Shown piece after piece: positions 19,073 through 39,801 of a stretch of DNA of 64,000 bases. The notes under the pieces are model-generated. The model did no database searches, was not told the origin of the DNA, and saw nothing but the letters and a program-made list of their open reading frames with translations. Source of the stretch: Escherichia coli. Lineage in GTDB: Bacteria > Pseudomonadota > Gammaproteobacteria > Enterobacterales > Enterobacteriaceae. The DNA lies in assembly GCF_016026235.1 (NCBI RefSeq), contig NZ_CP065613.1. One strand, 5' to 3'. The stretch's first letter is position 1. Each line of letters starts with the position of its first letter. The position numbers and the translations under genes were made by a program.

Positions 19073-19157
19073 GCCGAAGTGGCGAAATCGGTAGACGCAG
19101 TTGATTCAAAATCAACCGTAGAAATACGTGCCGGTTCGAGTCCGGCCTTCGGCACCA
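19073..19157 (+). tRNA. leuX: tRNA-Leu (anticodon CAA)
   Basis: 85-nt sequence GCCGAAGTGGCGAAATCGGTAGACGCAGTTGATTCAAAATCAACC...GGCACCA with CAA anticodon loop, long variable arm and 3' CCA. Confidence 0.9.
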
Positions 19158-19320
19158 TTAGTACTTCCAAGAACATCCGAGAAAGTCCAATTATTCCTTA
19201 AAAATCAATGCTTGCAGCGACTTTTACGTCCTGTGTCTTCCGAGGTTGTCCGTTGAAATCCGGATGTTATTGGGGGCATAATTGGGGGCATCTTAACTTC
19301 GATTAGAAATGTGCCCCCAA

Positions 19321-20577: not shown

Positions 20578-20668
20578 TAATTGATTTTTTCTGTATGTTT
20601 TTGTTAGGTATTAATCAATTTCAGTTTTACTTTCATCTATAACAGACTTATACACGGAATGATGCGTT

Positions 20669-23409: not shown

Positions 23410-24700
23410 GGGATCCCCAGAAAATTTAGTAAACCATTATCATATTGGTATACCGTTGCTGTAGAACTTTCAGCCCTGCGTCAAGTGACAGTGTGTTTAG
23501 TATGAGTGGAGAATGTCGAATCACATTCTCCGCCAGTTTTAATAACGAGATGACTCGCCTGTGCTTCACTGTATTTGCCTGATATTTATGATGTATCCCT
23601 TTGTTTTCCAGGCTGAAACCGCTTAACCACATAATGATACTGGCTAATGTTGCGATCAGACTCAATACCGTGACCCGCCCGGATGAATGACTGGCACCAA
23701 ACCGTAGTCCAAATCCCCAGCGAGGATTTTTTTCATCCCTGAAATTTTGCTCAATTTGCATTCTACGGCTGTATAATTTCATTACCTGTTTTGGCGAGAA
23801 CTCAGTACTGTTTGTGAAAATAAACCATGGTGATTTCCCGGCAGTACGAGCTTTAGCCGTCACCGATGGTCTGGTTGCTCTTTCCTTCGAGCGTTTAAAT
23901 CTACGACCTTTAGGCTTACTTTTATAAAGATAAAAATGCCCTTCATGTTGTGCATTTTTATCTCGACCCAGCAGGCCTTCACCTAAATAAATTGCTGTCG
24001 TTGATGCTTTTGTGCCTGAGTCCGACACCTTTTCCCAGCCATTACCAACATTGTAATAATGATTGCCCAGTACCCGGCAAATATAGGTCCAGCCACGGGA
24101 GCGGAGCTGTTGGAACCATCGCCCCTGAAAACCGGCATCTGTAATAACAATGACATCAGTCCCGGGGGAAAAGCACTCAGCAAGCGATTCCAGAAAACGC
24201 TCATGTACATCTGCATTCGCTGTCTGTGATGATGGAACGACACAACTCATCAACGGTAAAGAACGCCCGTCACATGCCAGGCTTGCCCGCAAAAGCTGAA
24301 AACGAGAGGCATGATAAGCACTCCAGTCAATGAGTATCACAACACGAGACATTCCCCGCGTAATCTTTTGGGTAATTCGCTGAAAAATGGTGGAAACCTC
24401 ATTTTGCAAATGTCGATTCCCCAACAGTCGATCCACCCGCTTTATTTTGTTTTTAACTGATGCCGTACCGGTTAAATGACGCCCGATACTGGTAAGTGTG
24501 AGGGAAGCGCCATTTATTACAGCATTAGTTGCGTCAATCAGTGATTTTTGACGGTAAAGATGCAAAGGGGCCAGTATGTTGTTAAGGAAATTTTGGCATA
24601 ATGAACGTGCAGGCATAGTGGTGATCTCCTTGAAATTGTTAGCACAATCAATTAGATCACATCTCACTATGCCTGTCTTGTTTTCTGGGGATTCCTCAGG
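23406..24700 (-). mobile_element. IS4-family insertion sequence (IS10-like), copy 2, flanked by 9-bp direct repeat GGAAAACCA
   Basis: Same element as copy 1 at a constant offset; duplicated 9-mer at 23397..23405 and 24701..24709. Confidence 0.85.
23426..24616 (-). CDS. IS4-family (IS10-like) DDE transposase
   Basis: Identical protein to copy 1; the ORF-track N-terminal extension crosses the IS boundary and is not part of the gene. Confidence 0.8.
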   Translation of the reverse strand: MPARSLCQNFLNNILAPLHLYRQKSLIDATNAVINGASLTLTSIGRHLTGTASVKNKIKRVDRLLGNRHLQNEVSTIFQRITQKITRGMSRVVILIDWSAYHASRFQLLRASLACDGRSLPLMSCVVPSSQTANADVHERFLESLAECFSPGTDVIVITDAGFQGRWFQQLRSRGWTYICRVLGNHYYNVGNGWEKVSDSGTKASTTAIYLGEGLLGRDKNAQHEGHFYLYKSKPKGRRFKRSKERATRPSVTAKARTAGKSPWFIFTNSTEFSPKQVMKLYSRRMQIEQNFRDEKNPRWGFGLRFGASHSSGRVTVLSLIATLASIIMWLSGFSLENKGIHHKYQANTVKHRRVISLLKLAENVIRHSPLILNTLSLDAGLKVLQQRYTNMIMVY

Positions 24701-24709
24701 GGAAAACCA

Positions 24710-24848
24710 TTGCATCCTAACTACTACTTTAAATATATATGCATTGAGAGAGGCTCAATATCGTTCATTCAGAATTAACTCCGATACTATTAAACACAAT
24801 CCTCCAGGGTTTGACTATAATGCTCTATTAGAGCGAGGTGAGAAATGA
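24710..24848 (+). pseudogene. displaced 3' end (last 45 codons) of the RT-nitrilase gene
   Basis: After removing the IS and one duplicated 9-mer the RT frame continues ...GGENH-CILTTTLNIYALREAQYRSF...ERGEK to TGA at 24846..24848. Confidence 0.65.
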
Positions 24849-25534
24849 GTAGCTTTTGGGAAGGTATTTTGTCATCAAGCATTTCATTTGCAATTATTGG
24901 ATTTGTTTGTAAGGCTTTTTTACAACATATTGATAAAAGAGAGTTAGAATCATTTAAAAATAAGTTGAAATATGAAAGTGAACAGAGAATTAAAGAGGAT
25001 GAACGTGCTTATAATTTTAAAAAAGCAAGAGATCTTGAAATCGGACGTTGGGGGTTAACATTACTTAGTGCTGCAAATGGTTTTTTAGGAAGGCTATGTT
25101 ATATTAAAGATCACAATGACCTATCGTCGGATCAATATTATATTGATAGTACAAGATTCTATCTATGCCAATATTTTTGCTGGGTACATCAATTCAGGAA
25201 AAATAGAGATTCATCTGTATTTTCACCAACTAATGATGAAATGTTAATAACTGAATTAATCAAAAATATTTCTATAGCCCTACGAGAGAACGATATTGGT
25301 TTTCCTTGTATTAGATCTCTTGAACAAAAGTATATAGGTGAAAGCCTTAGCATTGGTGCTGAATGTATGTCCTATAAAGATTTTATCGATTCTAAAGTAT
25401 TAGAAAACTATGCACCTCTAAATGATTTTGTTGAAGCAATTCTACAAAATAATAATAAAGATTATATCGATAAACTCGTTATCCCATTCCAAGATCTCAA
25501 GACCAGATTTGATGCGGCATTACAAAATAAATGA
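24845..25534 (+). CDS. hypothetical protein with N-terminal transmembrane helix, translationally coupled to the RT-nitrilase gene
   Basis: 229-aa ORF; ATGA start/stop overlap with the RT tail; hydrophobic segment ILSSSISFAIIGFVCKAFL; AT-rich like the RT gene. Confidence 0.6.
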   Translation: MSSFWEGILSSSISFAIIGFVCKAFLQHIDKRELESFKNKLKYESEQRIKEDERAYNFKKARDLEIGRWGLTLLSAANGFLGRLCYIKDHNDLSSDQYYIDSTRFYLCQYFCWVHQFRKNRDSSVFSPTNDEMLITELIKNISIALRENDIGFPCIRSLEQKYIGESLSIGAECMSYKDFIDSKVLENYAPLNDFVEAILQNNNKDYIDKLVIPFQDLKTRFDAALQNK

Positions 25535-25735
25535 TTTTTTTACCTGCGCGCAATGCTCTCCCCGCCTCGCCCGCCCGCTTTGCGGGGCGGTTTTAATGCA
25601 GTTGCACTGACACGCTCAGACCGCGCCGGGAATGGCGCGGTCTGCAGAAAATGAGGCAGGGAAACGCATGCAAAGCCATGCACCTTATCGATGCATGGCT
25701 TTTTTCAGTAAAAACAGGCGGATTTTCGGGGAATT

Positions 25736-26279
25736 TTACACAGACTGACGTGATGCCAGTTGCGCACTTTTACGCGAAAAAATCATGTTCTGCGCAGGGG
25801 TGAATTTTTCACGGCTGTCATCCACCGAAGCCGCGTCAGGCCTGAATCCGATGGTCGTTAAAATGTCGCTATCCTGTGCGGAATAATTAATTTTTTCACC
25901 CTTCGCAAGCCAGGACAGGAGGGCTTCACGCAGGGCATCTGTGGCACGCTGTATGGCACAGTTTCGGGCAATGGCCGTCAGCTCACTGTAGCCCATCAGC
26001 TCCGGTGCCAGTGCCGCCGCCAGTGCTGTGCCGTGCTGCTGCATAAAATCATTCAGCCGGTCGCGGATGCTGATGTGCTGAACGGCTTCATGCGAACGAA
26101 TATAACGACCGGCGGCCTGATTCACCTGCCATTTTCTGACTTCGATAATATTGCGTAATTCGTCCAGGCGACTGACGTTTCTGCCTTCTCCTGACAGAAG
26201 CCGCAGATATTCCTGTTCGGCCGCAGCCAGCTCATTTTTGCGTTGCAGCCATGCTGCTTTGTTATTCTGACAGGTGTCA
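25736..26279 (-). pseudogene. psu: P4 Psu-like (polarity suppression) protein, 5' end truncated by IS1
   Basis: 180-aa alpha-helical product recognised as P4 Psu-like; the first codons of ORF 25736..26293 are read from IS1 terminal sequence, so the native start is missing. Confidence 0.55.
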
Positions 26280-26334
26280 GGTAATGCTGCCAACTTACTG
26301 ATTTAGTGTATGATGGTGATTTTAAGGTGCTTGC

Positions 26335-27380: not shown

Positions 27381-28205
27381 TTAAAGCAGTAGCGGTAGGG
27401 TCGCGCTGGCAGTTTGCTGGCTCACATCGCTGTACTTATGATCCAGCGCAATCAGCGATGTGGTGAGTAACTCTACCAACAGCATAACTCCCACCTTGGC
27501 ATTCAGCGCGCCAGCGCTCAAGGGGCCTTCCGGTTTGGCCGCGACCAGTTGAATATCACTCAGCGAAGCTAACGGACTGCGCGGCGTATTACTCAGCGCC
27601 AGTACACGCACACCTTGCTTACGCGCTAGTTTTACGACATGCAGCAGATCGCGCGTGGATCCAGAACTGGAAATCGCCACCACGAACGTGTTTTTACTAA
27701 GTGTTGTGGCGTTCATGGCAGCACGATGCATATCGCTGAACAATTGTGCGGGTTTCCCCAGACGCAGGAGTTTGTAATGTAAATACTCCCCCAGAATAGC
27801 ACTGGCTGCTACGCCATAAATCTGTACTGACTGAGCCTGATGCAGTGCAAGCGTGGCTGCTTCCAGCAAGGTCCTATCGAGTAATTTTGCTGTGTCCTGT
27901 AGTGCTTGCACGGATTCATTGACCACATTGTCAATCTCATCACCGCCGTACTCTACAGACTGTACTTGTCGGAGATCGAGTGCAAGCGCCATTTTGAATT
28001 CGTTATAGCCCTTACACCCCAGCGTTCGGCACAGACGTGTGACGCTAGCCTCGCTGGTGCCGCTTTCACGCGCCAGTTCGGTAATCGTCAGGTAGACAAC
28101 TTTTGCCGGATCGCTAAGTACAAACTCTCCCAGCTTCTGTTGAGTTCGACTATATCCATCAACGCTCTGGCGCAATCTCAGCAGCAGGTTTTCATTTTCT
28201 GGCAT
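27381..28205 (-). CDS. RpiR/MurR-family transcriptional regulator (HTH + SIS domain)
   Basis: 274-aa ORF; N-terminal HTH (LTITELARESGTSEASVTRL) and SIS sugar-phosphate-binding region; divergent from the PTS gene. Confidence 0.8.
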   Translation of the reverse strand: MPENENLLLRLRQSVDGYSRTQQKLGEFVLSDPAKVVYLTITELARESGTSEASVTRLCRTLGCKGYNEFKMALALDLRQVQSVEYGGDEIDNVVNESVQALQDTAKLLDRTLLEAATLALHQAQSVQIYGVAASAILGEYLHYKLLRLGKPAQLFSDMHRAAMNATTLSKNTFVVAISSSGSTRDLLHVVKLARKQGVRVLALSNTPRSPLASLSDIQLVAAKPEGPLSAGALNAKVGVMLLVELLTTSLIALDHKYSDVSQQTASATLPLLL

Positions 28206-28370
28206 GCAAAATCCTTAATGCGTTTCTCTGCCGATAGTGTGGCGGAAAGTAGGGGAGAGATGCCAGTCATTTTAAAAAAGTATGATCGGTGTCTTGGTTT
28301 TTGATGGTAATTTTCATTTTTAAAATTAGTTATGGTAAAAATTTTTATCAATAATCGGGGAGATGAAAAA

Positions 28371-29927
28371 ATGATGCAAATATTTAGCGGCGCTTCGTCA
28401 GGCGCATGGTTTGAAAAAGCGCAGCGGTTCGGCAAATCGTTCATGCTGCCGATTGCGGTATTGCCCGCAGCGGGGTTGTTGTTGGGGATTGGTGGGGCTC
28501 TGTCGAATCCCAATACGTTGACGGCCTACCCATTCTTGAATGTCGACTGGCTGCAGGCAATCTTCACAATCATGACCAGCGCAGGTTCTATTGTGTTTGC
28601 CAACCTGTCGGTACTCTTTGCGGTCGGCGTCGCCGTGGGGCTGGCGAAATCGGATAAAGGCACTGCCGGGCTTGCGGCATTGCTAGCGTTTCTGGTGATG
28701 AATGCTACCATCAACGCCTTATTAACGCTAAATGGAACGTTGGCGCACAAGAACCCCGGTTCAGTTGGCCAGGGGATGACGCTTGGTATTCAGACACTGG
28801 AAACTGGTGTGTTTGGTGGGGTGGTGATTGGTCTCGTCACCTGCACGTTACATAGCCGTTTCAATAAAGTCTCACTACCTCAGTTTCTCGGTTTTTTTAG
28901 TGGTTCTCGTTTTGTACCCATTATCAGCTCCCTTGCCGCGATAGTAGTGGGTGCGGTTATGACGGTGGTGTGGCCGCATTTCCAGAAACTCATTTTTGGA
29001 CTGGGCGGCCTGGTGGATGCGACGGGCTATCTGGGGACGCTGTTGTACGGCTTCATCCTGCGTATGCTTGGTCCACTGGGTTTACACCATATCTTTTATT
29101 TGCCGTTCTGGACGACGGCGCTGGGCGGCAGTGAAATCGTCAACGGCCAGTTGGTTGAAGGTACGCAGCGGATTTTCTTTGCCCAACTTGCCGATCCGAA
29201 TACGCAGCAGTTCTACGCGGGTACCGCTCGCTTTATGTCCGGGCGCTTTATCACCATGATGTTTGGCCTGCTTGGCGCATGTCTGGCAATGTACCATACG
29301 GCAAAGCCGGAGAATAGAAAGGTTGTCGCCGGACTACTTTTGTCGGCAGCCTTGACCTCTTTCCTGACGGGAATCACTGAGCCTGTTGAGTTCTCCTTCC
29401 TGTTTGTCGCGCCCGTATTATACGTAATTCACGCCTTCTTCGATGGTCTGGCGTTTATGGTCGCCCATATTTTACATATCACTATTGGGCAAACCTTTTC
29501 GGGCGGGCTTATCGATTTCCTTCTCTTCGGCGTGTTGCAGGGGGAATCTAAAACAAACTGGATGTATGTCCCCATAGTGGGAATACCGTGGTTCTTCCTT
29601 TACTACTTCACTTTCCGCTATTTGATTAACCGCTTTGGCTGGCTGACGCCGGGTCGTGAGAACGTAACCCTGGTTGAATCCGGCCAGCCTCAGAGTGAAC
29701 GCGCAGCGGCAGTCATTGCCGGGCTGGGAGGCAAAGAGAATCTGGAAGAGGTGGACTGTTGCGCCACGCGCCTGCGCGTGACGGTTAAAGAGAGCAGTAA
29801 GGTAGATGAAGCTGCGCTGAAAGTGACCGGAGCGCGTGGCGTGATTATTCGCGGCAACGGCGTTCAGGTGATTTATGGCCCTCATGTCACCATCATTAAA
29901 AACGAAGTCGAAGAGATTTTATCGTAA
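28371..29927 (+). CDS. PTS glucose-family EIICB component
   Basis: Polytopic EIIC followed by EIIB motif CATRLR; GGGGAG Shine-Dalgarno ahead of ATG at 28371 (ORF track starts at 28332). Confidence 0.8.
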
Positions 29928-30616
29928 TGAAAACTGTACTGGATTCCCTGAAAGGTAAATTAATCGTCTCCTGTCAGGCTCTGGAAAATGAGCCTCTACA
30001 TAGTCCGTTTATTATGTCACGTATGGCGCTGGCGGCAGCACAAGGTGGTGCTGCAGGTATCCGTGCCAACAGCGTGGCGGATATTAGTGCTATCAAAGAG
30101 ATTGTCTCCCTTCCGATGATAGGGATTATCAAACGCGATTACCCTGGCAGTGAGGTGTTTATCACGGCCACTCTCCGGGAAGTGGATGAGTTGATGACCG
30201 TTGAGCCGGAAATTATTGCCCTGGATGCTACTGCGCGCCCGCGCCCTGGTGGTCAGACGCTGGAAGAACTGGTCACGCAGATCCGCGCTCGCTACCCGTC
30301 CGTACTTCTGATGGCAGATATAGCAACAGTAGAAGAGGCGGTGACAGCTGAACGTCTGGGTTTTGACTGTGTGGGCACTACGCTCTACGGCTATACCGCA
30401 GAAACTGCCAGGCATGTGCTGGCGGAAAATGACTGTGGATTCTTACGTGAGGTCCTGGCAGCGGTCAGCGTTCCGGTTGTGGCGGAAGGGAACGTCGATA
30501 CCCCGGAACGTGCCGCACGTTGCCTAACATTAGGCGCTCATACCGTGGTGGTTGGGGGGGCAATCACTCGTCCGCAGCAGATAACGACACGCTTTATCGC
30601 GGCGATCGCCTCGTAA
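29927..30616 (+). CDS. putative N-acetylmannosamine-6-phosphate 2-epimerase (NanE family)
   Basis: 229-aa TIM-barrel-like product; start overlaps the EIICB stop (TAATG). Confidence 0.75.
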
Positions 30617-30643
30617 AGCACCGATGGGGTATGATACTTTGGT

Positions 30644-30673
30644 GGGGATAAGCGATAATTATCGCTTATCCCC
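30644..30673. repeat. perfect 30-bp palindrome GGGGATAAGCGATAATTATCGCTTATCCCC
   Basis: Exact dyad symmetry directly downstream of the NanE-like gene, without a T-run. Confidence 0.6.
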
Positions 30674-31856
30674 ATATTGAGAGTGTTATGCAGTACCCGA
30701 TTAGCTAGATTTTCCAGACCCTGCAAGGTGAGGGGGACTATTGACGCGCTGGACGAACTATTCGCCACGCTGAGCTACGACAAACCGCGGGTGATTGCGC
30801 TGCACTTTAAAATTTCCGAAGGTTATACCCTGTTGATGCTGATTACCACCTTCACCAGCTGCCTGATATTGTGCAAAAACTACGGCTGGTGAAGGTTGGT
30901 TTTACCATTACTGCTGTATATACCCTGCAACTGTTATGGCTGAATGGCGAGCAGTACATCCTTCCGTGTCTTATCAACACCATTATTGGTTGTTTAATTG
31001 CTTCGGCGGTACCGTCTGGTTGTGGTCACAGTGGTATAACGGGTTATTGCGTAAGAATGCCCATGACGCTTCAGAAGCCTATCAGAAAGTGATATTGGCT
31101 CAGCAGCACTTTACAAACGGCGGTACAGTGGCTGGGAGATTATTGCCGATCCGATATGCCGCATTAATGAGAGAGTTCATCATAGGAGAACGCTTTTGCC
31201 AAATAAACCACCTGCCTGTCGTCCAGAATCGCCGCGTAGCTGGTTTTCCCAACCGTTTGCTCAGAAATGAGATCAATAGCCGCAAATCGCGGGCCTGATC
31301 GATGCTTTCAATATAGTTAGCCGCCATTTTTTGCAGCGCCAGGCCCACGTGATACAAGCGTGTATCCGGCATATAGAGCGGATAGTCGTTATCGAGAAAC
31401 TCCTGAGTCAGGCAGTGGGCGGAGCTTCTGGGAATATAGAGGTAATCTGCGAGGCGATCTGATGTATAATCTGTTTAGTAAGAGTAGCGTTTTTAACGCT
31501 ATTACGTCCATGGTGTAGCCTATATGCAGGCAAAGTTCATATCCTTGAGTTTTATGTCAGCCTCTTCCTTTAAGCATCTACTTGGTGTCTATCGTTACTT
31601 CGCACACAAGCATCATGTATATGATGTAACGAAATTAGTTAACGCCCTTATAAGAATCAAGACGTTATCGGGACGCTGTTAACCTGGCTATCCATCCCAA
31701 AACCGGTGCTGACTGGCAATAGCGCGGACAGCAAAATCGGGTGATGACACCGGGGCAGAATGAAAAATATTATCTTGCTGGCGCGTTACATAGCTGAACG
31801 GGCAAAGTCTGCTACGTGGGCAGTAACCGCAAAGTTCAGCCTTATTTATCAGTCTG

Positions 31857-32090
31857 TTGAAGCAACTGAAGTCTGTGTACCGGCGGGCAAAAACGATGCC
31901 CCTCATCGTGGATAATTACATTATTCACAAAAGCCGGGAAACGCAGCGTTGGCTGAAGGAAAATCCGAAGTTCAGGGTGATTTATCAGCAAGTTTACTCG
32001 CCATGGGTAAATCATTTTGAACGGCTATGGCAGGCGCTTCATGAAACGATAACGCGCAATCATCAGTGCCGGAGATGTGGCAGTTGCTGA
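31857..32090 (+). pseudogene. C-terminal fragment of a DDE transposase (IS630-like motif YSPWVNHFERLW)
   Basis: 77-aa ORF with no N-terminal catalytic domain; surrounding frames broken. Confidence 0.4.
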
Positions 32091-32176
32091 AAAAAGTCCA
32101 ACACTTTATGGAAACTGCCAGTCCGTTCCCCGGCGGGAGACATGGTCTGGCAAAAGTGTAGCGGTATTAGGCGCAG

Positions 32177-32470
32177 CTATTTAGCGACATATTCCTTTGT
32201 TTTATCGTCAGTTCGTAAACGTCCGATAGCGATGATGTGAAGTGCACTATTTGCAGCACGCTCCCCACCCCGATTAAGTCGGTAACGGTTCATTTTTTTA
32301 GAAGATACGGTAACCGAGTTGACACCACACAGCACCGCAAAACCTGATTCTATTCTTAGCCGTTGGGGATTATCTCCGGCAGTGATGAGCAACTGCGAAG
32401 CGCTTTCGTATCCAACAGCATTACGTTTAATCAGTTCAGGTGCCAGTTCATCGACAATTGCCGCAATCAT
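32177..32470 (-). pseudogene. C-terminal fragment of an IS110-family-like transposase
   Basis: 97-aa ORF whose pattern (GVNSVTVSSKK...RGGERAANSALHIIAIGRLR) parallels the C-terminal region of the intact IS110-family protein at 36419..37546. Confidence 0.35.
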
Positions 32471-32861
32471 GACATCAAGGTCGGCGATTTCATCATGTAA
32501 CTCGAAATAGCGTCAGGCAAGTGATTTCAATGCAATGCGATAAACGTTGGTAACATTACGATATTCACTGGCACTAGGCTTCCAGGATCCCGGAGTCCTG
32601 ATAAGTTGCATACGTGTCATATTTCTGAGTGGTTCGCGTAATTCATCCGGTGCAGAGATAATATAGGAATGGATAATCTGGAGAGCGACTCTGCAGGCTG
32701 ATATTGCGGTTTTGCGGCAAGTTTTTGGCATCCGCTTCTACGCCAAATACCTGAAGTAGGAATGGATGCGTTAGCAGCATACATCCGGATCTGCGCGGGG
32801 AATAGCCGGAAACGGCTATCCCTACCACAATAGCTAACTTTGTAATAGTGCCCTTTTAGGC

Positions 32862-33893
32862 TCATGTACTCTGACGTAATTCTATCTGGTAGTTGAATTG
32901 CACGATACGCGACTCTTCTGATTCATCATGATTATTATTCAATAGCCCAATCAGTAACTTACCCGTCTCTATCCCCATTTTTTTGTAGTCAATACGGATG
33001 GATGTCAAGGTTGGGTGTGTTTGATCGCAATTGTCTGAACCATCAAGACAAGCTACAGCGATATTTTCAGGAATTTTTAACAAACGCCGCTGGCACTCAA
33101 ACATGATACCCAGCGCAATCTCTTCGTGGCTGCAAATCACAGCATCCAGCTCTGGTTGTCGCAGTAATATCTCGTTTAATGCGTAACGCCCCAATTGCAG
33201 ACTTGCGGCATCCGGCATGGTGATAACAAGATCAGAGTTCTGGTAATGGCTCAACATTGCTTTATGCCAGCCGTTCAGTTGCTGACGTTGCAGGCGGTTG
33301 TCCATATGCGCACCGATAAATCCGATATTCTTATAACCCTGTTCCAGCAGATGTTCGGTCAGTTTATGTGATGCTTCAAAAAATGCTGTTTCGATGGTAA
33401 TTTGAGCCGGACTGAAAGGGGAACCGACAACGTTAATGGTAGGTATATTTGTTTTCTCGAGTATCTGGTGAGTTTTATCAGCCAACTGAGAACCAAAAAT
33501 AACTAACGCCGCCGGGTTGCCTTGAAGAAGCGTCATCAGAATTTCAGCTTCTTTGAGCTGATTATACTCATGACACCCAAGCAGTAGCTGGAATTCATTT
33601 TTATTAAGCACCTGCTGCAACGACTGCATAAAGCGGGAGCTGGCTTTATCTGTCAGGGAAGGAACCAGTACGGCGACTGTATCACTGTGACCAGATGCAA
33701 GGGCGCCAGCAGTTCTGTTGGGAATATAACCCAACTCTTCTACGGCCTGTTCTATCTTTTCCCTCAGCTTGTCAGATACCTGTTCCGGTGTTCTCAGCGC
33801 ACGGGAAACGGTCATGGTTCCGACACCTGCAAAGTTAGCGACCTCCTGCAGCGTCACCCGTCCGGTACCACGGCGCTTACGTGTTTTTTCCAT
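32862..33893 (-). CDS. LacI-family transcriptional regulator
   Basis: 343-aa ORF with N-terminal HTH (TLQEVANFAGVGTMTVSRAL) and sugar-binding domain; divergent from the PTS operon. Confidence 0.8.
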   Translation of the reverse strand: MEKTRKRRGTGRVTLQEVANFAGVGTMTVSRALRTPEQVSDKLREKIEQAVEELGYIPNRTAGALASGHSDTVAVLVPSLTDKASSRFMQSLQQVLNKNEFQLLLGCHEYNQLKEAEILMTLLQGNPAALVIFGSQLADKTHQILEKTNIPTINVVGSPFSPAQITIETAFFEASHKLTEHLLEQGYKNIGFIGAHMDNRLQRQQLNGWHKAMLSHYQNSDLVITMPDAASLQLGRYALNEILLRQPELDAVICSHEEIALGIMFECQRRLLKIPENIAVACLDGSDNCDQTHPTLTSIRIDYKKMGIETGKLLIGLLNNNHDESEESRIVQFNYQIELRQST

Positions 33894-34163
33894 TTCGACT
33901 CCATGGATAATTACAACCAGCTGTTTTCATTACTGTTATTTCACCATTACTCTTTCCAGTTTTTGCCCACGGTAGCAAATATCCTGTTGCATTGTATATG
34001 CAGGAACCGAATATAGCCAAAGCATGGCGGCAGAGAAATGATAGCGCTATCACAAAGATTGGTAGCGTTATCAGATAGCGCTATCAAATGCGACAATCAT
34101 CACATTAATTAATGCGTAAAATATCTACTCTCCTGTTAATTATCATCGGGAGTTATCAGTAGC

Positions 34164-34607
34164 ATGTTAAAAAATCTATTAAATACAGAGGTCGTTCAGG
34201 TCGTGGAACAGGCCAAAGACTGGCGGGAAGCCGTGGCGATTTCATGCCGGCCGTTGATTGAAAACGGTTCTATCGAACCGCGTTATGTTGATGCGATCTA
34301 TCGCTCGCACGACACTATCGGTCCGTACTATGTGGTTGGCCCTGGTATTGCGATGCCTCATGCGCGCCCGGAAGAGGGAGCTAACAAGCTGTCATTAGCA
34401 CTGACCCTGATCCCTTCAGGTGTGAATTTTGATGCCGATGAAAACGATCCAGTGAAATTACTGATTGTGCTGGCTGCAACCGACAGTACCAGCCACATTG
34501 AAGCGATTTCTCAACTCGCCAAGTTATTCGATAACGAAAAAGACATACAGGCCATTTTGATGGCCAAAACGACGCAGGACATTTTGTCTGTTATTGCGCG
34601 CTATTAA
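34164..34607 (+). CDS. PTS EIIA component (ascorbate/mannitol-type)
   Basis: 147-aa ORF with phosphorylatable His region GIAMPHAR. Confidence 0.75.
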   Translation: MLKNLLNTEVVQVVEQAKDWREAVAISCRPLIENGSIEPRYVDAIYRSHDTIGPYYVVGPGIAMPHARPEEGANKLSLALTLIPSGVNFDADENDPVKLLIVLAATDSTSHIEAISQLAKLFDNEKDIQAILMAKTTQDILSVIARY

Positions 34608-34622
34608 TCCAGAGGAACATTT

Positions 34623-34910
34623 ATGAAAATTACAGTGGTTTGCGGTAACGGCTTAGGCACCAGCCTGATGATGGAAATGAGCATTAAAAGCATTTTGAAG
34701 GATTTGTCCGTCAGCGCTGATGTTGATCACGTCGACCTGGGCTCCGCGAAAGGGACGCCGAGTGATATCTATGTCGGCACCAAAGACATTGCCGAGCAGT
34801 TAGTCGCGCAGTCTGTCGCAGGCAAAATCGTCGCACTGGAAAATATGATTGATAAGAAAGCCATGAGAGAACGTTTATCCGTGGTATTAAACGAATTAGG
34901 CGCACTGTAA
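34623..34910 (+). CDS. PTS EIIB component (ascorbate-type)
   Basis: 95-aa ORF with N-terminal Cys motif VVCGNGLGTS. Confidence 0.75.
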   Translation: MKITVVCGNGLGTSLMMEMSIKSILKDLSVSADVDHVDLGSAKGTPSDIYVGTKDIAEQLVAQSVAGKIVALENMIDKKAMRERLSVVLNELGAL

Positions 34911-34922
34911 GCTGGGGGCGAT

Positions 34923-36179
34923 ATGGATTTCTTTCGTTTTTTGATGAGCGATGTACTTTCCGAACCCGCAGTGCTGGTCGGTTTAATCGCCCTGATTGGC
35001 CTGATTGCACAGAAAAAACCGGTAACCGAATGCATTAAAGGTACCGTCAAGACCATTATGGGGTTTGTGATTTTAGGCGCAGGGGCGGGTTTAGTTGTGT
35101 CGTCACTGGGTGACTTCGCAAACATTTTCCAGCATGCCTTTGGTATTCAGGGTGTAGTGCCGAACAATGAAGCCATTGTTTCCGTAGCGCAGAAAAGCTT
35201 CGGGAAAGAAATGGCGATGATTATGTTCTTTGCGATGGTTATCAACATTATGATTGCCCGTTTCACACCGTGGAAATTTATCTTCCTGACCGGTCATCAC
35301 ACGTTGTTTATGTCGATGATGGTAGCGGTAATTCTGGCAACAGCAGGCATGACCGGCATTACGCTTATAGCCGTTGGCTCTTTGGTTGTTGGCGTGGCAA
35401 TGGTCTTTTTCCCGGCTATTGCGCATCCGTACATGAAGAAAGTGACCGGTTCTGATGACGTTGCCATCGGCCACTTCTCAACATTATCTTATGTATTGGC
35501 CGGTTTCATCGGCAGCAAGTTTGGTAATAAAGAGCACTCGACTGAAGACATGAATGTGCCGAAAAGTCTGCTGTTCTTGCGCGACACGCCGGTTGCTATC
35601 TCTTTTACCATGAGCATAATTTTCCTGGTGACGTGCCTGTTTGCGGGTGCAGATGCGGTGAAAGAGCTTAGCGGTGGTAAAAACTGGTTCATGTTCTCTA
35701 TCATGCAATCCATTACCTTCGCAGCTGGCGTGTACATCATTCTGCAGGGTGTGCGCATGGTGATTGCGGAGATTGTCCCGGCATTCAAAGGTATTTCAGA
35801 CAAGCTGGTTCCGAATGCCAGACCTGCTCTCGATTGCCCGGTCGTCTTCCCTTACGCACCTAACGCTGTACTGGTTGGTTTCCTGAGTAGCTTTGCTGCA
35901 GGTTTAATCGGTATGTTCACGTTGTATCTGCTGAACATGATCGTGATTATTCCTGGTGTGGTGCCGCACTTCTTCGTAGGTGCAGCTGCAGGGGTATTCG
36001 GTAATGCAACGGGTGGACGTCGTGGTGCGATTTTGGGTGCCTTCGCTCAAGGCTTGCTTATTACCTTCCTGCCAGTATTCTTATTGCCGGTGCTGGGTGA
36101 TATTGGTTTTGCTAACACCACCTTCAGTGATGCTGACTTTGGCGCACTGGGTATTTTGTTAGGGATTATCGTTCGCTAA
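34923..36179 (+). CDS. PTS EIIC component (ascorbate-type, SgaT/UlaA-like)
   Basis: 418-aa polytopic membrane protein following EIIA and EIIB. Confidence 0.75.
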   Translation: MDFFRFLMSDVLSEPAVLVGLIALIGLIAQKKPVTECIKGTVKTIMGFVILGAGAGLVVSSLGDFANIFQHAFGIQGVVPNNEAIVSVAQKSFGKEMAMIMFFAMVINIMIARFTPWKFIFLTGHHTLFMSMMVAVILATAGMTGITLIAVGSLVVGVAMVFFPAIAHPYMKKVTGSDDVAIGHFSTLSYVLAGFIGSKFGNKEHSTEDMNVPKSLLFLRDTPVAISFTMSIIFLVTCLFAGADAVKELSGGKNWFMFSIMQSITFAAGVYIILQGVRMVIAEIVPAFKGISDKLVPNARPALDCPVVFPYAPNAVLVGFLSSFAAGLIGMFTLYLLNMIVIIPGVVPHFFVGAAAGVFGNATGGRRGAILGAFAQGLLITFLPVFLLPVLGDIGFANTTFSDADFGALGILLGIIVR

Positions 36180-36418
36180 TATTTTGATGACATTAATATC
36201 CTCCAGGATTTCAGGAACGTGGAGGATATTAATTCCTCTTATTTTCTCCATTTTTCTTTCTTCCAGTCAGGACTGCATCCGATTAATCGTAAGGCAGTAT
36301 GACTTTCTGTGAGACAGATGCTGGCCAACGTGGGATATTTAACGCGGGTTAACATCGTTGTCAGAGCCGCATGGGTGAGCTGTTGCTACACCCCGGTATT
36401 TCCACCACGGAGGCCAGC

Positions 36419-37546
36419 ATGAACAACAATAACACATTGTACGTCGGGTTAGATGTTCACAAAGAATCGATTACTGTCGCTTATGCTATCAATTCAGAAC
36501 CTGTTGAACTGATGGGTAAAATTGGCACATCACCTACTGATATTCAGAATCTTTGTAAACGTCTCAGGTCAAAGTCATCGCAGGTCAGTATCGTTTATGA
36601 AGCGGGGCCCTGTGGTTATGGACTTTATCGTCGGCTGGTGAAATCCGGTTTTGACTGCATGGTCTGCGCCCCCTCACTTATCCCGAAAAAACCGGGGGAG
36701 CGGGTTAAAACCGATCGCCGTGATGCCATCAGACTTGTGCGTTCACTGCGTGCAGGAGATCTTTCTGCTGTCTACGTACCCGGCATTGAAGATGAGGCAT
36801 TCCGGGATTTGGCCCGGGCATGGGCATCTGCCCGCGATGATTTACGGCATGCAAGGCAACGTCTGAAATCGTTTCTTCTGGTTCATGGGGTCCATTATGT
36901 CGGGCGAGCAGATTGGGGCCCTGCACACCGACGCTGGCTCAGCAAATACTCATTCGAAAGTCCCTGGCGACAATTAGCTTTTGACGAACACCGTCGTACA
37001 ATAGAAGACCGGCAGGCACAATGTGAACGGCTGGAATCCGCCCTGAAGGAGGCCGTTACCGAATGGAGGCTGTATCCGGTAGTAGAGGCGCTGCAAGCCA
37101 TGCGAGGGATTCAGTTTATTACTGCGGTTGGATTAATTTCTGAACTGGGTGATCTGACCCGTTTTGAACATCCACGACAACTGATGTCATGGTTTGGTAT
37201 CACGCCATCAGAATATTCATCGGGTGGAAGCAGACATCAGGGCAGCATTACCAAAGCCGGAAACAGCTATGCCAGAAAGCTATTGGTCGAGGCAGCGTGG
37301 AGTTACCGTCATCCGGCACGCATCAGTCCGGCAATACAAAAAAGGCAGGAAAATTTACCCCGCCCCGTCATTGACAGAGCATGGGATGCTCAACTCAGGC
37401 TTTGTAAGAGGTATCGAAAACTTCAGGCCAAAGGAAAGAATGTCAATATTACAATTGTTGCTGTTGCACGTGAGCTGGCGGGTTTTATCTGGGATATGGG
37501 CCGAATAGCAATATCTGTCGCACAACAACCACAATGTCACAAATAA
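36419..37546 (+). CDS. IS110-family transposase/recombinase (DEDD N-terminal domain)
   Basis: Start at MNNNNTLYVGLDVHKESI after GGAGG; C-terminal motif GITPSEYSSGGSRHQGSITKAGNSYARKLL typical of the IS110 family. Confidence 0.8.
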   Translation: MNNNNTLYVGLDVHKESITVAYAINSEPVELMGKIGTSPTDIQNLCKRLRSKSSQVSIVYEAGPCGYGLYRRLVKSGFDCMVCAPSLIPKKPGERVKTDRRDAIRLVRSLRAGDLSAVYVPGIEDEAFRDLARAWASARDDLRHARQRLKSFLLVHGVHYVGRADWGPAHRRWLSKYSFESPWRQLAFDEHRRTIEDRQAQCERLESALKEAVTEWRLYPVVEALQAMRGIQFITAVGLISELGDLTRFEHPRQLMSWFGITPSEYSSGGSRHQGSITKAGNSYARKLLVEAAWSYRHPARISPAIQKRQENLPRPVIDRAWDAQLRLCKRYRKLQAKGKNVNITIVAVARELAGFIWDMGRIAISVAQQPQCHK

Positions 37547-38138
37547 AAAATGAGAATAACCAGTTCCCTGAAGGCGACGTAGCCCGGTACAAGAGTAACC
37601 CACGTTAGCGCTTGGCGACGGCGGAACAAAGCTGATTCGCGACGTAAGAAAGTGGCAGGCTCATATGACGGACCTCTGTAATGCGGTATCCAACCCGCGA
37701 ATATCAGCGTGATTCACCGTCGGATTTACTGCTACGTCGCCCTCAGGGAATTAAACCTAAAAAGAAAATCGTCAAAATTAGAGATTCCGGTTTGACACGG
37801 AAAGTCATATCAGCGCTGACGGGTGACCCTAAGCCCTGATAATCATAGCTTAAGGTGAGGATTTATGAGGGATTAATTAGGAAAAGTAATAATTAATTTG
37901 TTGTCAGTCGGCGATGTTTGTTAGGCCAATATTTCAAAAATAATCCAGCTTGTCGTCAATAATTGCGATAAAGAGATAAATTAAAGTTAAATAATTAAAT
38001 CATTAAAAAATTACGCCATTAAAATGCGAGGCGTCTTCCGGATTAGAATCGATAAAACAGAATGGGTTAAAGAGAGCGATATAATAGCGGCGGGTGCTTG
38101 AGGCTGTCTGTCTCAGGCATTAGCTGAACGGCAGATAG

Positions 38139-38193
38139 AGAAAAGCCCCGAGTGATATTTTACCATCAACCCGAGGCCCCCTATATGCTGAAC
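38139..38193 (-). ncRNA. sokC: putative Sok-type antisense RNA of the hok/mok locus (position inferred, not seen)
   Basis: Inferred from the canonical hok/sok layout, in which the antitoxin RNA is antisense to the mok start region; no promoter or terminator verified. Confidence 0.3.
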
Positions 38194-38394
38194 ACATGTA
38201 GAGTGCCTCTTACTGACCGTAAGGTCAAGGAGAAGAGAGCAATGAAGCAGCATAAGGCGATGATTGTCGCCCTGATCGTCATCTGTATCACCGCCGTAGT
38301 GGCGGCGCTGGTAACGAGAAAAGACCTCTGTGAGGTTCACATCCGAACTGGCCAGACGGAGGTTGCTGTTTTCACGGCTTACGAATCCGAGTAA
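38185..38394 (+). CDS. mokC: Mok-type translational coupling frame overlapping hok
   Basis: 69-codon frame starting MLNTCRVPL that ends at the same stop as hok. Confidence 0.6.
   Translation: MLNTCRVPLTDRKVKEKRAMKQHKAMIVALIVICITAVVAALVTRKDLCEVHIRTGQTEVAVFTAYESE
38242..38394 (+). CDS. hokC: Hok/Gef-family type I toxin (50 aa)
   Basis: MKQHKAMIVALIVICITAVVAALVTRKDLCEVHIRTGQTEVAVFTAYESE, a single-TM Hok family peptide. Confidence 0.85.
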   Translation: MKQHKAMIVALIVICITAVVAALVTRKDLCEVHIRTGQTEVAVFTAYESE

Positions 38395-38417: not shown

Positions 38418-39712
38418 CTGAGGGATCCCCAGAAAATTTAGTAAACCATTATCATATTGGTATACCGTTGCTGTAGAACTTTCAGCCCTGCGTCAAGTGA
38501 CAGTGTGTTTAGTATGAGTGGAGAATGTCGAATCACATTCTCCGCCAGTTTTAATAACGAGATGACTCGCCTGTGCTTCACTGTATTTGCCTGATATTTA
38601 TGATGTATCCCTTTGTTTTCCAGGCTGAAACCGCTTAACCACATAATGATACTGGCTAATGTTGCGATCAGACTCAATACCGTGACCCGCCCGGATGAAT
38701 GACTGGCACCAAACCGTAGTCCAAATCCCCAGCGAGGATTTTTTTCATCCCTGAAATTTTGCTCAATTTGCATTCTACGGCTGTATAATTTCATTACCTG
38801 TTTTGGCGAGAACTCAGTACTGTTTGTGAAAATAAACCATGGTGATTTCCCGGCAGTACGAGCTTTAGCCGTCACCGATGGTCTGGTTGCTCTTTCCTTC
38901 GAGCGTTTAAATCTACGACCTTTAGGCTTACTTTTATAAAGATAAAAATGCCCTTCATGTTGTGCATTTTTATCTCGACCCAGCAGGCCTTCACCTAAAT
39001 AAATTGCTGTCGTTGATGCTTTTGTGCCTGAGTCCGACACCTTTTCCCAGCCATTACCAACATTGTAATAATGATTGCCCAGTACCCGGCAAATATAGGT
39101 CCAGCCACGGGAGCGGAGCTGTTGGAACCATCGCCCCTGAAAACCGGCATCTGTAATAACAATGACATCAGTCCCGGGGGAAAAGCACTCAGCAAGCGAT
39201 TCCAGAAAACGCTCATGTACATCTGCATTCGCTGTCTGTGATGATGGAACGACACAACTCATCAACGGTAAAGAACGCCCGTCACATGCCAGGCTTGCCC
39301 GCAAAAGCTGAAAACGAGAGGCATGATAAGCACTCCAGTCAATGAGTATCACAACACGAGACATTCCCCGCGTAATCTTTTGGGTAATTCGCTGAAAAAT
39401 GGTGGAAACCTCATTTTGCAAATGTCGATTCCCCAACAGTCGATCCACCCGCTTTATTTTGTTTTTAACTGATGCCGTACCGGTTAAATGACGCCCGATA
39501 CTGGTAAGTGTGAGGGAAGCGCCATTTATTACAGCATTAGTTGCGTCAATCAGTGATTTTTGACGGTAAAGATGCAAAGGGGCCAGTATATTGTTAAGGA
39601 AATTTTGGCATAATGAACGTGCAGGCATAGTGGTGATCTCCTTGAAATTGTTAGCACAATCAATTAGATCACATCTCACTATGCCTGTCTTGTTTTCTGG
39701 GGATTCCTCAGG
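38418..39712 (-). mobile_element. IS4-family insertion sequence (IS10-like), copy 3, flanked by 9-bp direct repeat AGTGATCCC
   Basis: Same termini as copies 1 and 2; duplicated 9-mer at 38409..38417 and 39713..39721; target lies in GGGGAGTGATCCCC. Confidence 0.85.
38438..39628 (-). CDS. IS4-family (IS10-like) DDE transposase
   Basis: Identical protein to copies 1 and 2. Confidence 0.8.
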   Translation of the reverse strand: MPARSLCQNFLNNILAPLHLYRQKSLIDATNAVINGASLTLTSIGRHLTGTASVKNKIKRVDRLLGNRHLQNEVSTIFQRITQKITRGMSRVVILIDWSAYHASRFQLLRASLACDGRSLPLMSCVVPSSQTANADVHERFLESLAECFSPGTDVIVITDAGFQGRWFQQLRSRGWTYICRVLGNHYYNVGNGWEKVSDSGTKASTTAIYLGEGLLGRDKNAQHEGHFYLYKSKPKGRRFKRSKERATRPSVTAKARTAGKSPWFIFTNSTEFSPKQVMKLYSRRMQIEQNFRDEKNPRWGFGLRFGASHSSGRVTVLSLIATLASIIMWLSGFSLENKGIHHKYQANTVKHRRVISLLKLAENVIRHSPLILNTLSLDAGLKVLQQRYTNMIMVY

Positions 39713-39801
39713 AGTGATCCCCGCCACTTTACAGGTGCTCGCATATCTTCAACGCACCCTATTTTTACCCAGGCCTGCCCACGGGCAGGCTTTTGGGGAG
39801 G

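Follow-up and report, generated by a model that had tools for sequence, protein, structure and literature searches.

Two independent accessory PTS cassettes on a leuX island of Escherichia coli: a likely ManNAc shunt and the vpe locus

Main finding

The stretch of Escherichia coli DNA analysed here (64,000 nucleotides, hereafter the window) carries two intact PTS cassettes that occur independently of each other. In our reading, to which we assign a probability of about 0.75, the first (module 1) is a minimal ManNAc shunt and the second (module 2) is the vpe locus. Both are ordinary accessory metabolism that is already known.

Table 1. Features of the two modules and of the surrounding island
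Feature	Position	Strand	Basis or detail
tRNA-Leu(CAA), leuX	19073..19157		start of island
Module 1 regulator, RpiR/MurR-family, NanR-like	27381..28205	-	Pfam HTH_6 + SIS
Module 1 divergent control region, AT-rich, 165 bp	28206..28370		sequence inspection
Module 1 glucose-family PTS EIICB, 518 aa, no EIIA domain	28371..29927	+	PTS_EIIC 2e-90, PTS_EIIB
Module 1 NanE, N-acetylmannosamine-6-phosphate 2-epimerase	29927..30616	+	Pfam NanE 6e-70
Inter-module debris, whole	30794..32734		RefSeq pseudogene annotation transferred from identical E. coli block
YccS/YhfK-type transporter fragment	~30794-31094		RefSeq pseudogene annotation of identical E. coli block
IS630-family fragment	~31696-32161		DDE_3 match at 31857-32090
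IS110-family transposase fragment	~32180-32734		Transposase_20 match at 32177-32470
Module 2 regulator, LacI-family, GntR/IdnR-like clade	32862..33893	-	Pfam LacI + Peripla_BP_3
Module 2 operator cluster	34039..34086		TGATAGCGCTATCA 34039-34052; TGGTAGCGTTATCA 34060-34073; AGATAGCGCTATCA 34073-34086
Module 2 EIIA, PTS_EIIA_2 family	34164..34607	+	Pfam 3e-36
Module 2 EIIB, PTS_IIB family	34623..34910	+	Pfam 2e-12
Module 2 EIIC (VpeC), L-ascorbate-family (TC 4.A.7) permease, 418 aa	34923..36179	+	EIIC-GAT 4e-150
IS110-family element (ISSso6-like), ends island block	36371..37546	+	Pfam + NCBIfam IS110; RefSeq name ISSso6

Integrity and distribution of the two modules

All seven ORFs named by a first-pass annotation of this DNA are present where it placed them, each with domain matches whose E-values are low enough to exclude chance, and both regulators do read divergently from the transporter genes. 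The EIICB ORF as such spans 28332..29927, of which the RefSeq start, adopted in Table 1, leaves 518 residues. No ORF has an internal stop (0/7), and protein comparison with other E. coli revealed no frameshift. Genes with 99–100% identity to these seven are annotated in hundreds of E. coli genomes, and each exact protein sequence is recorded on at least 1000 contigs; strain 3359 has seven identical proteins, and NCTC 86 has five, the remaining two with one residue difference each. Promoter and terminator scans returned matches no better than chance, and transcription units were therefore assigned from gene layout alone.

Of 5426 complete E. coli genomes, 468 (8.6%) carry module 1 in full and 935 (17%) module 2. 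The two are distributed independently, so that they are separate units and not a pair.

Genomic setting

The block holding both modules belongs to an already described leuX island, namely ROD 40 of E. coli NCTC 86, whose gene order it reproduces; the island is also related to PAI I(AL862). With islands of this type the window shares the insertion site, leuX between ahr and fec, and a P4-type integrase comes after leuX at the island start. In NCTC 86, ROD 40 extends over valS-fecE, bears the label ‘Vpe - pts system’ and carries deoK too. A deoK operon lies beside vpe in the ROD 40 and PAI I(AL862)-type islands, whereas the window has none; in three E. coli loci compared, deoK-type genes lie downstream of vpe. 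Directly past vpeC the window island is truncated by ISSso6, with a junction to the hokC-dnaJ region, and similarity to the E. coli block ends at about 36293. The ‘transposase fragments’ said to separate the modules proved to be IS630-type and IS110-type remnants, accompanied by a transporter fragment (Table 1).

The horizontal acquisition proposed by the first-pass annotation is supported by the leuX island and by the genome counts given above. It is further supported for each module on its own. Thus, module 1 shares 84–93% nucleotide identity with a locus on the Citrobacter core chromosome, where the same trio sits between eno and a radical-SAM gene, and the homology stops about 20 to 120 bp from the gene ends. 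Module 2 recurs as a four-gene cassette with unrelated flanks in at least six genera, represented by E. coli, Providencia, Edwardsiella, Brenneria, Photorhabdus and V. parahaemolyticus. Both cassettes would then be cargo of a leuX-inserted genomic island in an IS-rich, Shigella sonnei-like background.

Such a background invites the view that both modules are silent relics heading for decay, like much Shigella accessory metabolism. Indeed, the island is interrupted by ISEc60, IS1 and ISSso6, the adjacent deoK operon has been lost, and about 400 E. coli genomes retain no more than a remnant of vpeC. However, no damage is seen in the seven ORFs or in either control region, all of which match non-degraded E. 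coli exactly, and neither frameshift nor stop has appeared, which makes decay a quite improbable account of this locus.

Module 1: a candidate ManNAc shunt

Three lines of evidence, namely the identity of NanE, its linkage and the regulator’s closest structure, support the earlier suggestion of an N-acetylated amino sugar as the module 1 substrate, and sharpen it to ManNAc. First, NanE scores 317 bits on NCBIfam NF002231 (cut-off 189) and is 61.9% identical to S. aureus NanE (1Y0E/6VVA). Second, its gene lies directly downstream of that for EIICB in 75 of 80 species loci drawn from two phyla. Most EIICB-NanE loci in this set are linked to an RpiR-family gene, which is divergent and upstream of EIICB in 54 of the 80. 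The EIICB orthologues, from Enterobacterales and Firmicutes, are 68–97% identical, and the loci with the adjacent pair include Bacillales with an EIICB identity of about 70%. Third, the best solved structure for the regulator is V. vulnificus NanR with bound ManNAc-6-P (4IVN), at 237 bits and 45.6% identity over 270 aa, the full length, the second-best structure reaching 112 bits; among NCBIfam equivalogs, none reached its cut-off for this protein.

On these grounds the most likely role of module 1 is ManNAc import followed by conversion to GlcNAc-6-P. EIICB would take up ManNAc and release ManNAc-6-P, which NanE would turn into GlcNAc-6-P for the host’s core NagA/NagB pathway. Having no EIIA of its own, EIICB is presumably phosphorylated by the host EIIA-Glc (Crr). 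It has the domain architecture and the GITEP and CATRLR motifs of E. coli PtsG, MalX and NagE, and PtsG and MalX likewise contain no EIIA domain. PtsG and MalX use Crr. The module has no sialic-acid genes (nanA, nanK, nanT) and would form a ManNAc branch of three genes only.

The regulator is probably a ManNAc-6-P-responsive repressor, to judge from its sequence, and would shut the operon off until ManNAc-6-P builds up. V. vulnificus NanR, of the same RpiR family, is a repressor, in contrast to the studied Gram-positive RpiR regulators, which are activators. The spacing between regulator and EIICB genes (152–210 bp) is kept across Enterobacterales; within the control region there is a single weak inverted repeat (28298-28354), and inspection of the region for inverted repeats defined no operator.

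Similar gene sets have been studied in Gram-positive bacteria. In the S. pneumoniae nan operon an EIIA-less Glc-type EIIBC also adjoins NanE under an RpiR regulator, and this RpiR-type NanR binds ManNAc-6-P. L. monocytogenes has an RpiR/PTS/NanE operon as well, and growth on ManNAc requires its lmo2795-nanE operon. ManNAc specificity of the PTS components themselves was demonstrated in neither organism. Listeria without the nanE-linked PTS still grows on ManNAc, and the authors who studied the nanE-linked pneumococcal EIIBC, SP1684, assigned it to glucosamine; NanE linkage is therefore no proof of ManNAc specificity. According to the Listeria paper, E. coli already imports ManNAc through ManXYZ, which would make module 1 redundant for uptake. 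Our literature search found no direct experiment on the module 1 substrate.

These Gram-positive observations are also what favors a different reading, in which the sugar brought in by EIICB is not ManNAc but glucose, glucosamine, mannosamine or GlcNAc, and the linkage of NanE has some other cause, for example production of ManNAc-6-P from GlcNAc-6-P or activity on another 2-epimer. The best NCBIfam match of EIICB, the glucose-specific IIBC model glcB, points the same way, falling 7 bits under its cut-off (585 vs 591.8). However, every substrate-specific equivalog model stayed below cut-off, including those for glucose, maltose and GlcNAc, and EIICB shares no more than about 45% identity with PtsG (364 bits against the E. 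coli PtsG structures), its orthologues being NanE-linked. Moreover, adjacency of EIICB and NanE in so many species of two phyla argues that the product of the PTS is the substrate of NanE, and the closest characterized relative of the regulator senses ManNAc-6-P. We consider import of another sugar unlikely and keep ManNAc as the preferred substrate.

Module 2: the vpe locus

The first-pass annotation had treated module 2 as anonymous, but it is the published vpe locus. Its EIIA, EIIB and EIIC are identical to those encoded in NCTC 86 ROD 40, which contains a single L-Asc-family EII set, and the regulator differs by one residue. We take the EIIA, EIIB and regulator genes to be vpeA, vpeB and vpeR. 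VpeC has been described as an L-Asc-family EIIC (TC 4.A.7.1.2) without TM11 (PMC6048161); in agreement, the window EIIC does not have the C-terminal hydrophobic segment (TM11) of UlaA. The same genes, with an EIIC likewise devoid of TM11, make up vpe of uropathogenic E. coli AL511.

How far the ascorbate label applies was judged against E. coli UlaABC (UlaA, 4RP8/4RP9; P. multocida homolog, 5ZOV), of the same transporter family. VpeC is 30.6% identical to UlaA and keeps its pivots G58 and G286, plus R288, H135, H194, D314 and F362; it probably shares the elevator mechanism. The MPHxRPEEG His motif of EIIA aligns with UlaC, and the N-terminal VCGNGxGxS Cys motif of EIIB with UlaB. In the pocket, however, only 4 of the 11 vitamin-C contacts of UlaA are kept. 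Of the seven changes one is conservative (I358V), five are invariant in the six genera (T86N, Y87E, I136H, Q139F, Q195F), and M410 is replaced by F or I. Because so few contacts are retained, the ‘ascorbate/ulaA’ label, and with it the ‘ascorbate-type’ EIIC of the first-pass annotation, is valid by sequence at the family level (EIIC-GAT) only.

In a rival reading module 2 is a second L-ascorbate PTS feeding ascorbate-6-P to the chromosomal ula pathway, in line with the RefSeq product name of its EIIC, an ascorbate PTS subunit IIC, to which the gene name ‘ulaA’ is sometimes added. The family membership and retained transport residues are compatible with this, VpeC passes NF006919, ‘PTS ascorbate transporter subunit IIC’ (628 vs 380), and processing by the E. 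coli core ulaG/D/E/F would explain why the cassette encodes no enzyme. Against this, VpeC fails the true-UlaA NCBIfam model (592 vs 890), and mutation of UlaA ascorbate contacts cripples binding, as reported in the UlaA paper, while six of the eleven are replaced non-conservatively here. The gene order is A-B-C instead of the C-B-A of ula, and a GntR-like LacI regulator with its own operator stands in place of the DeoR-type UlaR; neither ulaG/D/E/F nor ulaR, the companions known from the K-12 ula operon, was found near module 2. A citing preprint (bioRxiv 10.1101/2020.08.12.249037) calls the substrate an ‘unknown carbohydrate’. We give a second ascorbate system little credence; the Vpe substrate is probably not L-ascorbate, as judged from the divergent pocket.

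Operator and possible substrate of Vpe

The spacer between the regulator and EIIA genes contains a cluster of three operator matches. At two mismatches or fewer, three were seen in the window where 0.19 were expected, a number reached by 0 of 100 shuffles. In Providencia and Edwardsiella the operator is kept although the rest of the intergenic DNA has diverged, and it occupies the regulator-EIIA spacer of 13/13 compared cassette-bearing loci and of 0/86 other loci. We propose that the regulator, a GntR-like member of the LacI family, represses the cassette from two or three TGATAGCGCTATCA operators before the EIIA gene.

The core of the operator, GATAGCGCTATC, is similar to the footprinted Pseudomonas GntR sites GACAGCGCTATCT and GACAGCGCTGTCT, as well as the P. 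aeruginosa GntR consensus (...TAGCGCT). P. aeruginosa GntR also provides the best-scoring NCBIfam model for the regulator, yet below its cut-off (279 bits vs 400), followed by IdnR (208) and E. coli GntR (175), both under cut-off too; PDB 3H5O, ‘GntR’, scores 173 bits. Pseudomonas GntR repressors respond to gluconate and 6-phosphogluconate. They target gntP/gntK, whereas the module 2 regulator stands beside PTS genes, and for LacI-family proteins a similar operator does not tell which effector is bound. Our leading guess for the Vpe substrate is a gluconate-type aldonic or keto-aldonic sugar acid or lactone.

In the proposed mechanism, HPr would phosphorylate EIIA (His), which would pass the phosphate to EIIB (Cys) and so onto the substrate in VpeC, an elevator-type EIIC. 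No enzyme gene is attached to the cassette in any of the six genera; ‘catabolic’, as both modules had been called, is thus overstated for module 2, and the phosphorylated product must be processed by enzymes encoded elsewhere.

The missing enzymes also suit a sensory or regulatory role, in which Vpe would act through its phosphorylation state on capsule-like surface polysaccharide and virulence instead of nutrition. In citing papers, Vpe is linked to urovirulence and gut fitness, its loss impairs virulence (the same preprint), and vpe mutants of UPEC AL511 have much less group 2 capsule, as relayed by a citing paper. The capsule defect could, however, equally stem from a lost carbon or precursor supply. 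Every UlaA transport-cycle residue is kept in VpeC, which is 88–97% conserved across distant genera. We thus regard a mainly sensory Vpe as rather unlikely and retain uptake as its probable function, a dedicated sugar-type repressor with its operator being the hallmark of inducible uptake.

Identification of module 2

Module 2, a LacI-type regulator divergent from ascorbate-type EIIA, EIIB and EIIC genes, is, as judged from its gene content and protein identities, the published vpe locus. The genome paper on E. coli NCTC 86 assigns both vpe and the deoK operon to ROD 40, the leuX island region of that strain (valS-fecE, 57.9 kb, "Vpe - pts system"), and in that account leaves unspecified which PTS is vpe. 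We find ROD 40 to carry IS1, RpiR, EIICB, NanE, the same debris as here, LacI, EIIA, EIIB, EIIC, a transposase and deoK-type genes, with only one L-Asc-type EII set among them. The window's EIIA, EIIB, EIIC, RpiR and NanE proteins are residue-for-residue those of NCTC 86, and the EIICB and the LacI regulator differ by one residue each. VpeC, the vpe EIIC, has been classed as TC 4.A.7.1.2 and described as being without TM11 (PMC6048161), and is therefore an ascorbate-family EIIC shorter than UlaA, the EIIC of the E. coli L-ascorbate PTS. In agreement, the window EIIC has 418 aa as opposed to 465 in UlaA, and the alignment leaves UlaA residues 437–464 and the last hydrophobic segment (427–445) without a full counterpart. 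The other module 2 genes are presumably those named vpeR, vpeA and vpeB. The label "Vpe" is absent from the depositor names of the exact-sequence clusters.

[quoted passage not shown] A preprint (bioRxiv 10.1101/2020.08.12.249037) describes Vpe as a transporter of 'an unknown carbohydrate' and reports that AL511 became less virulent when it was lost. Colonisation of the gut is a further phenotype that citing papers attribute to vpe. The locus is not a new one: module 2 has been published as a determinant of fitness and virulence in extraintestinal E. coli, and annotations of the whole block exist in hundreds of genomes.

The first-pass annotation had placed seven ORFs here, with transposase fragments between the modules, and ORF and domain calls confirmed all of them (Table). 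Its cautious interpretation is likewise supported; what it missed was the identity of module 2 as vpe. The stretch between the modules consists of a YccS/YhfK-type, an IS630-type and an IS110-type fragment. We considered whether the modules might be pseudogenes, given the IS-rich genome, and rejected this because every ORF is intact, with internal stops in none of the seven. The EIICB start follows RefSeq (28371), giving a protein of 518 aa whose exact sequence is recorded on at least 1000 contigs.

Table. Features of the PTS block and its island surroundings, in window coordinates
Feature	Coordinates	Strand	Domains or models
tRNA-Leu(CAA)	19073..19157		
P4-like integrase	19309..20577		
RVT_1-containing ORF, interrupted by ISEc60 copy	21358..23409		
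ISEc60-like IS4-family transposase gene, first copy	23426..24715		
229-aa partner ORF	24845..25534		
Psu	25736..26293		
RpiR/MurR-type regulator, module 1	27381..28205	-	HTH_6 (PF01418) + SIS (PF01380)
Glucose-family EIICB, module 1	28332/28371..29927	+	PF02378 PTS_EIIC 2e-90, PF00367 PTS_EIIB 3e-15
NanE, module 1	29927..30616	+	PF04131 6e-70; NCBIfam NF002231
LacI-family regulator, module 2	32862..33893	-	
EIIA, module 2	34164..34607		PTS_EIIA_2
EIIB, module 2	34623..34910		PTS_IIB
EIIC-GAT permease (VpeC), module 2	34923..36179		PF03611 4e-150
ISSso6	36371..37546		
ISEc60-like IS4-family transposase gene, second copy	38438..39727		

Regulator and putative operator of vpe

The spacer between the regulator and EIIA holds a perfect 14-bp palindrome, TGATAGCGCTATCA, at 34039–34052, followed by near-copies at 34060–34073 (TGGTAGCGTTATCA) and 34073–34086 (AGATAGCGCTATCA). 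Three matches to the palindrome were thus observed where 0.19 were expected, and none of 100 shuffles reached three. Each of the 13 loci that carry the cassette has the core GATAGCGCTAYC in this spacer, and the core is absent from the 86 other loci compared; in Providencia and Edwardsiella, two palindrome sites are kept in spacers that have otherwise diverged. We infer that the cluster is the operator of the LacI-family protein, a family whose usual logic is repression relieved by induction. By eye, a TTGGTA-17-TATCAA arrangement overlaps these operators and falls short of the criteria of the promoter scan. Scans with promoter and terminator consensus gave counts at or below the shuffled expectation, and hence no promoter is claimed; no Rfam family was detected within the PTS block.

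GntR and IdnR are regulators of sugar-acid pathways. The top three NCBIfam models for the vpe regulator, all scoring below their cut-offs, are NF052440 (P. aeruginosa GntR, 279 against 400), IdnR (208 against 500) and E. coli GntR (175 against 433). The likeness to Pseudomonas GntR extends to the operator, whose AGCGCT-centred palindrome resembles the footprinted sites GACAGCGCTATCT and GACAGCGCTGTCT, as well as the ...TAGCGCT consensus. Pseudomonas GntR repressors are known to be released by gluconate and 6-phosphogluconate.

The substrate of VpeC

Some RefSeq records name the vpeC gene 'ulaA', with the product 'PTS ascorbate transporter subunit IIC'. Several observations bear on whether VpeC does carry ascorbate. 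First, of two curated models with this name, VpeC passes NF006919 ('ascorbate IIC', 628 bits against a cut-off of 380) and fails the UlaA equivalog NF009549 (592 against 890), so the models disagree. Second, VpeC is 30.6% identical to UlaA, in which vitamin C is contacted by T86, Y87, H135, I136, Q139, H194, Q195, D314, I358, F362 and M410, residues whose mutation cripples binding. We aligned UlaA with VpeC and five orthologues, covering six genera. Only H135, H194, D314 and F362 of these contacts are kept in VpeC, together with a conservative I358V; in every one of the six genera, positions 86, 87, 136, 139 and 195 are occupied instead by N, E, H, F and F, and position 410 by F or I. Transport-cycle residues G58, G286 and R288 are retained. 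Third, module 2 differs from the K-12 ula operon in gene order and regulator type and in having no ulaG/DEF; neither ulaG/ulaDEF nor UlaR genes occur in the window or in the cassette loci of the six genera. From these comparisons we conclude that the VpeC pocket would be functional yet tuned to a ligand other than ascorbate. The RefSeq 'ascorbate/ulaA' label is, we conclude, a family-level name, and as a statement about substrate it is very probably wrong, with consequences for attempts to reconstruct the metabolism of pathogenic E. coli and Shigella.

The same four genes occur in Providencia, Edwardsiella, Brenneria, Photorhabdus and Vibrio parahaemolyticus, with EIIC identities of 88–97% (all at least 88% among the matches listed). 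Their flanks are unrelated, that in Brenneria being pta on one side and a NUDIX gene on the other, and no enzyme gene is common to the flanks of these five. The EIIA His motif aligns with that of UlaC and the EIIB Cys motif with that of UlaB, the corresponding ascorbate components. In a PTS, phosphate is relayed from HPr to EIIA, to EIIB and then to the substrate in EIIC, and Vpe would be expected to follow the same course.

Since the known substrate of the family is an acidic sugar lactone, the repressor is GntR-like and the cassette is free of enzymes, we suggest a sugar acid. Tentatively, and with a probability that we put at about 0.25–0.3, the Vpe substrate may be an aldonate, keto-aldonate or lactone that yields, as its 6-phosphate, a compound already present in host metabolism. 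For example, D-gluconate or glucono-lactone might be phosphorylated directly, giving 6-phosphogluconate or a close relative. If true, this would account for the lack of any enzyme in the cassette, for the likeness of its repressor and operator to those of Pseudomonas GntR, and for its benefit to fitness in the gut and urinary tract. Vpe would then be the first TC 4.A.7 PTS with a defined non-ascorbate substrate, a reading that we hold to be less likely than not. The substrate hypothesis is concrete and cheaply testable, built as it is on a conserved operator, a regulator resembling GntR and a cassette free of enzymes.

Module 1 and ManNAc

Module 1 comprises an RpiR-type regulator, a glucose-family EIICB and NanE. 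The EIICB, which is ~45% identical to E. coli PtsG, shows, in alignment with that protein, the GITE motif of its EIIC(Glc) domain and the phosphorylatable Cys of its EIIB domain (CATRLR); Pfam finds no EIIA domain in it, from which we take EIIA-Glc (Crr) to be its likely phosphoryl donor. NanE scores above the cut-offs of the curated family models, along its entire length (PF04131, 235 bits against 27; NF002231, 317 against a cut-off of 189). Its identity to S. aureus NanE (1Y0E/6VVA) is 61.9%, in an alignment of 215 residues that has a single gap, and it stands nearer to the NanE of Firmicutes than to that of Salmonella or Vibrio. The alignment keeps the Lys of the KRDY motif, which we take to be catalytic. 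For the regulator, the best solved relative is 4IVN, which matches over the full length (237 bits, 45.6% identity over 270 residues) and leads the next structure, RccR (112 bits), by a factor of two. 4IVN is V. vulnificus NanR crystallised with ManNAc-6-P. The control region of module 1 offers only a weak AT-rich inverted repeat, and for this reason no operator is proposed.

Relatives of the EIICB were sought in one genome per species, and the loci of the best 80 of the 161 found were analysed. Many of these 80 are from Enterobacterales, with EIICB identities of 77–97%; those from Bacillales, Thermoactinomycetaceae, Vagococcus, Brochothrix and Selenomonadales reach 68–74%, far above the value for PtsG. 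Within the same best 80 of 161, NanE lies directly downstream of EIICB in 75 loci and upstream of it in three from Selenomonadales; it was undetected in two, one of which is cut short where the contig ends. All 54 Enterobacterales loci with sufficient flank have a divergent RpiR-family gene upstream; in most Firmicute loci such a gene sits just downstream of NanE. That the EIICB–NanE linkage is tight in two phyla argues that the product of the PTS is the substrate of NanE. The NanE-linked EIICBs of Enterobacterales and of Bacillales/Selenomonadales are ~70% identical to each other, much more than to any E. coli paralogue, which suggests that an EIICB–NanE–RpiR unit may have moved between Firmicutes and Enterobacterales. 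Yersinia pekkanenii has RpiR and EIICB genes with no NanE detected downstream, and in Pantoea sp. SOD02 the trio is on a 927-kb megaplasmid.

The chemistry of NanE and the nag pathway are established, and the linkage to NanE makes ManNAc the probable substrate of the EIICB. Using host Crr, the EIICB would take up and phosphorylate ManNAc, NanE would turn the product into GlcNAc-6-P for host NagA/NagB, and the NanR-like repressor would be released by ManNAc-6-P. With fair confidence we read module 1 as a self-sufficient ManNAc-to-GlcNAc-6-P shunt. Host sialic acid and the polymers of bacterial cell walls both release ManNAc, and the shunt may therefore aid gut competitiveness. Module 1 resembles the S. 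pneumoniae nan operon, in which a Glc-type EIIBC lacking EIIA accompanies NanE under an RpiR-type NanR that binds ManNAc-6-P. Listeria requires an RpiR/PTS/NanE operon in order to grow on ManNAc. Caveats to the ManNAc reading are that the pneumococcal nanE-linked EIIBC was assigned to glucosamine, that growth on ManNAc persisted when the Listeria PTS was deleted, and that E. coli already imports ManNAc through ManXYZ.

As to origin, these three genes, unchanged in length and spacing, are also found in Citrobacter, where they lie in the core chromosome with eno on one side and a radical-SAM gene on the other. The window copy is 84–92.8% identical to the Citrobacter copies at the nucleotide level, and the homology stops ~12–22 bp past the RpiR stop and ~118 bp past that of NanE; the island therefore captured a 3.4-kb unit. 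A variant that is 96.5% identical occurs in a different island, that of E. coli MRY15-117 (16339..17236 of comparison locus L013). Its neighbours are a transketolase pair and another 'PTS ascorbate IIC' gene, distinct from vpeC, and E. coli islands therefore carry further uncharacterised ascorbate-family PTS sets.

Island setting and distribution

Upstream of the block, the window runs through valS, holC, pepA, lptFG, yjgR, idnRTOD/K, ahr, tRNA-Leu(CAA) and a P4-type integrase. NCTC 86 has a matching gene order, and the PTS block is therefore cargo of the leuX island. Of 5426 complete E. coli genomes, 468 (8.6%) have the whole of module 1 and 935 (17%) the whole of module 2, with remnants of the latter in ~400 more, JJ1887 included. 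The modules are contiguous in 294, in which a 10-kb query over both finds matches of 99–100% identity over 92–93% of its length. We therefore regard them as distinct cassettes that are merely neighbours on this island lineage; that they form one functional pair was considered and rejected, as they occur independently of each other. The vpeC remnant is typically, as in JJ1887, the last 878 bp (35302..36179 in the window), and resembles a scar left by deletion of the vpe cassette, whether the deletion recurred or was inherited.

In the 294 genomes, the block is followed by an aldose-epimerase/fucP-like/rbsK-like/DeoR cluster, which the literature calls the "deoK operon". In the window, the match to these genomes ends ~115 bp beyond the EIIC stop, and an ISSso6-type IS110 element links the island to a region holding sok/hokC, a copy of ISEc60, and dnaJ. 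The same two regions are 123 kb apart in the closest genome, E. coli FDAARGOS_943. The junction and this separation point to an IS-rich, rearranged, Shigella sonnei-like chromosome in which the deoK operon is no longer adjacent. IS-mediated rearrangement is also indicated by the two near-identical IS4-family (ISEc60-like) transposase genes and the one ISSso6.

Both modules belong to ordinary accessory metabolism that has been described before, on an island that is itself known, and nothing here would surprise specialists. The residual value lies in the Vpe substrate hypothesis, the probable database mislabel and the annotation of the NanE-linked PTS.

The left part of the island (19309..26293) looks like a P4-type satellite remnant. 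Its reverse-transcriptase gene is uninterrupted in E. coli 3359, where it encodes 958 aa (6973–9849 of that strain's locus, L001), and this P4-hotspot enzyme may be a defence-type RT. On the other side of the block, a hok/sok-type toxin–antitoxin occupies 38092..38394, with sok RNA (Rfam RF01794, 119.5 bits) overlapping the mokC/hokC ORF (38152..38394).
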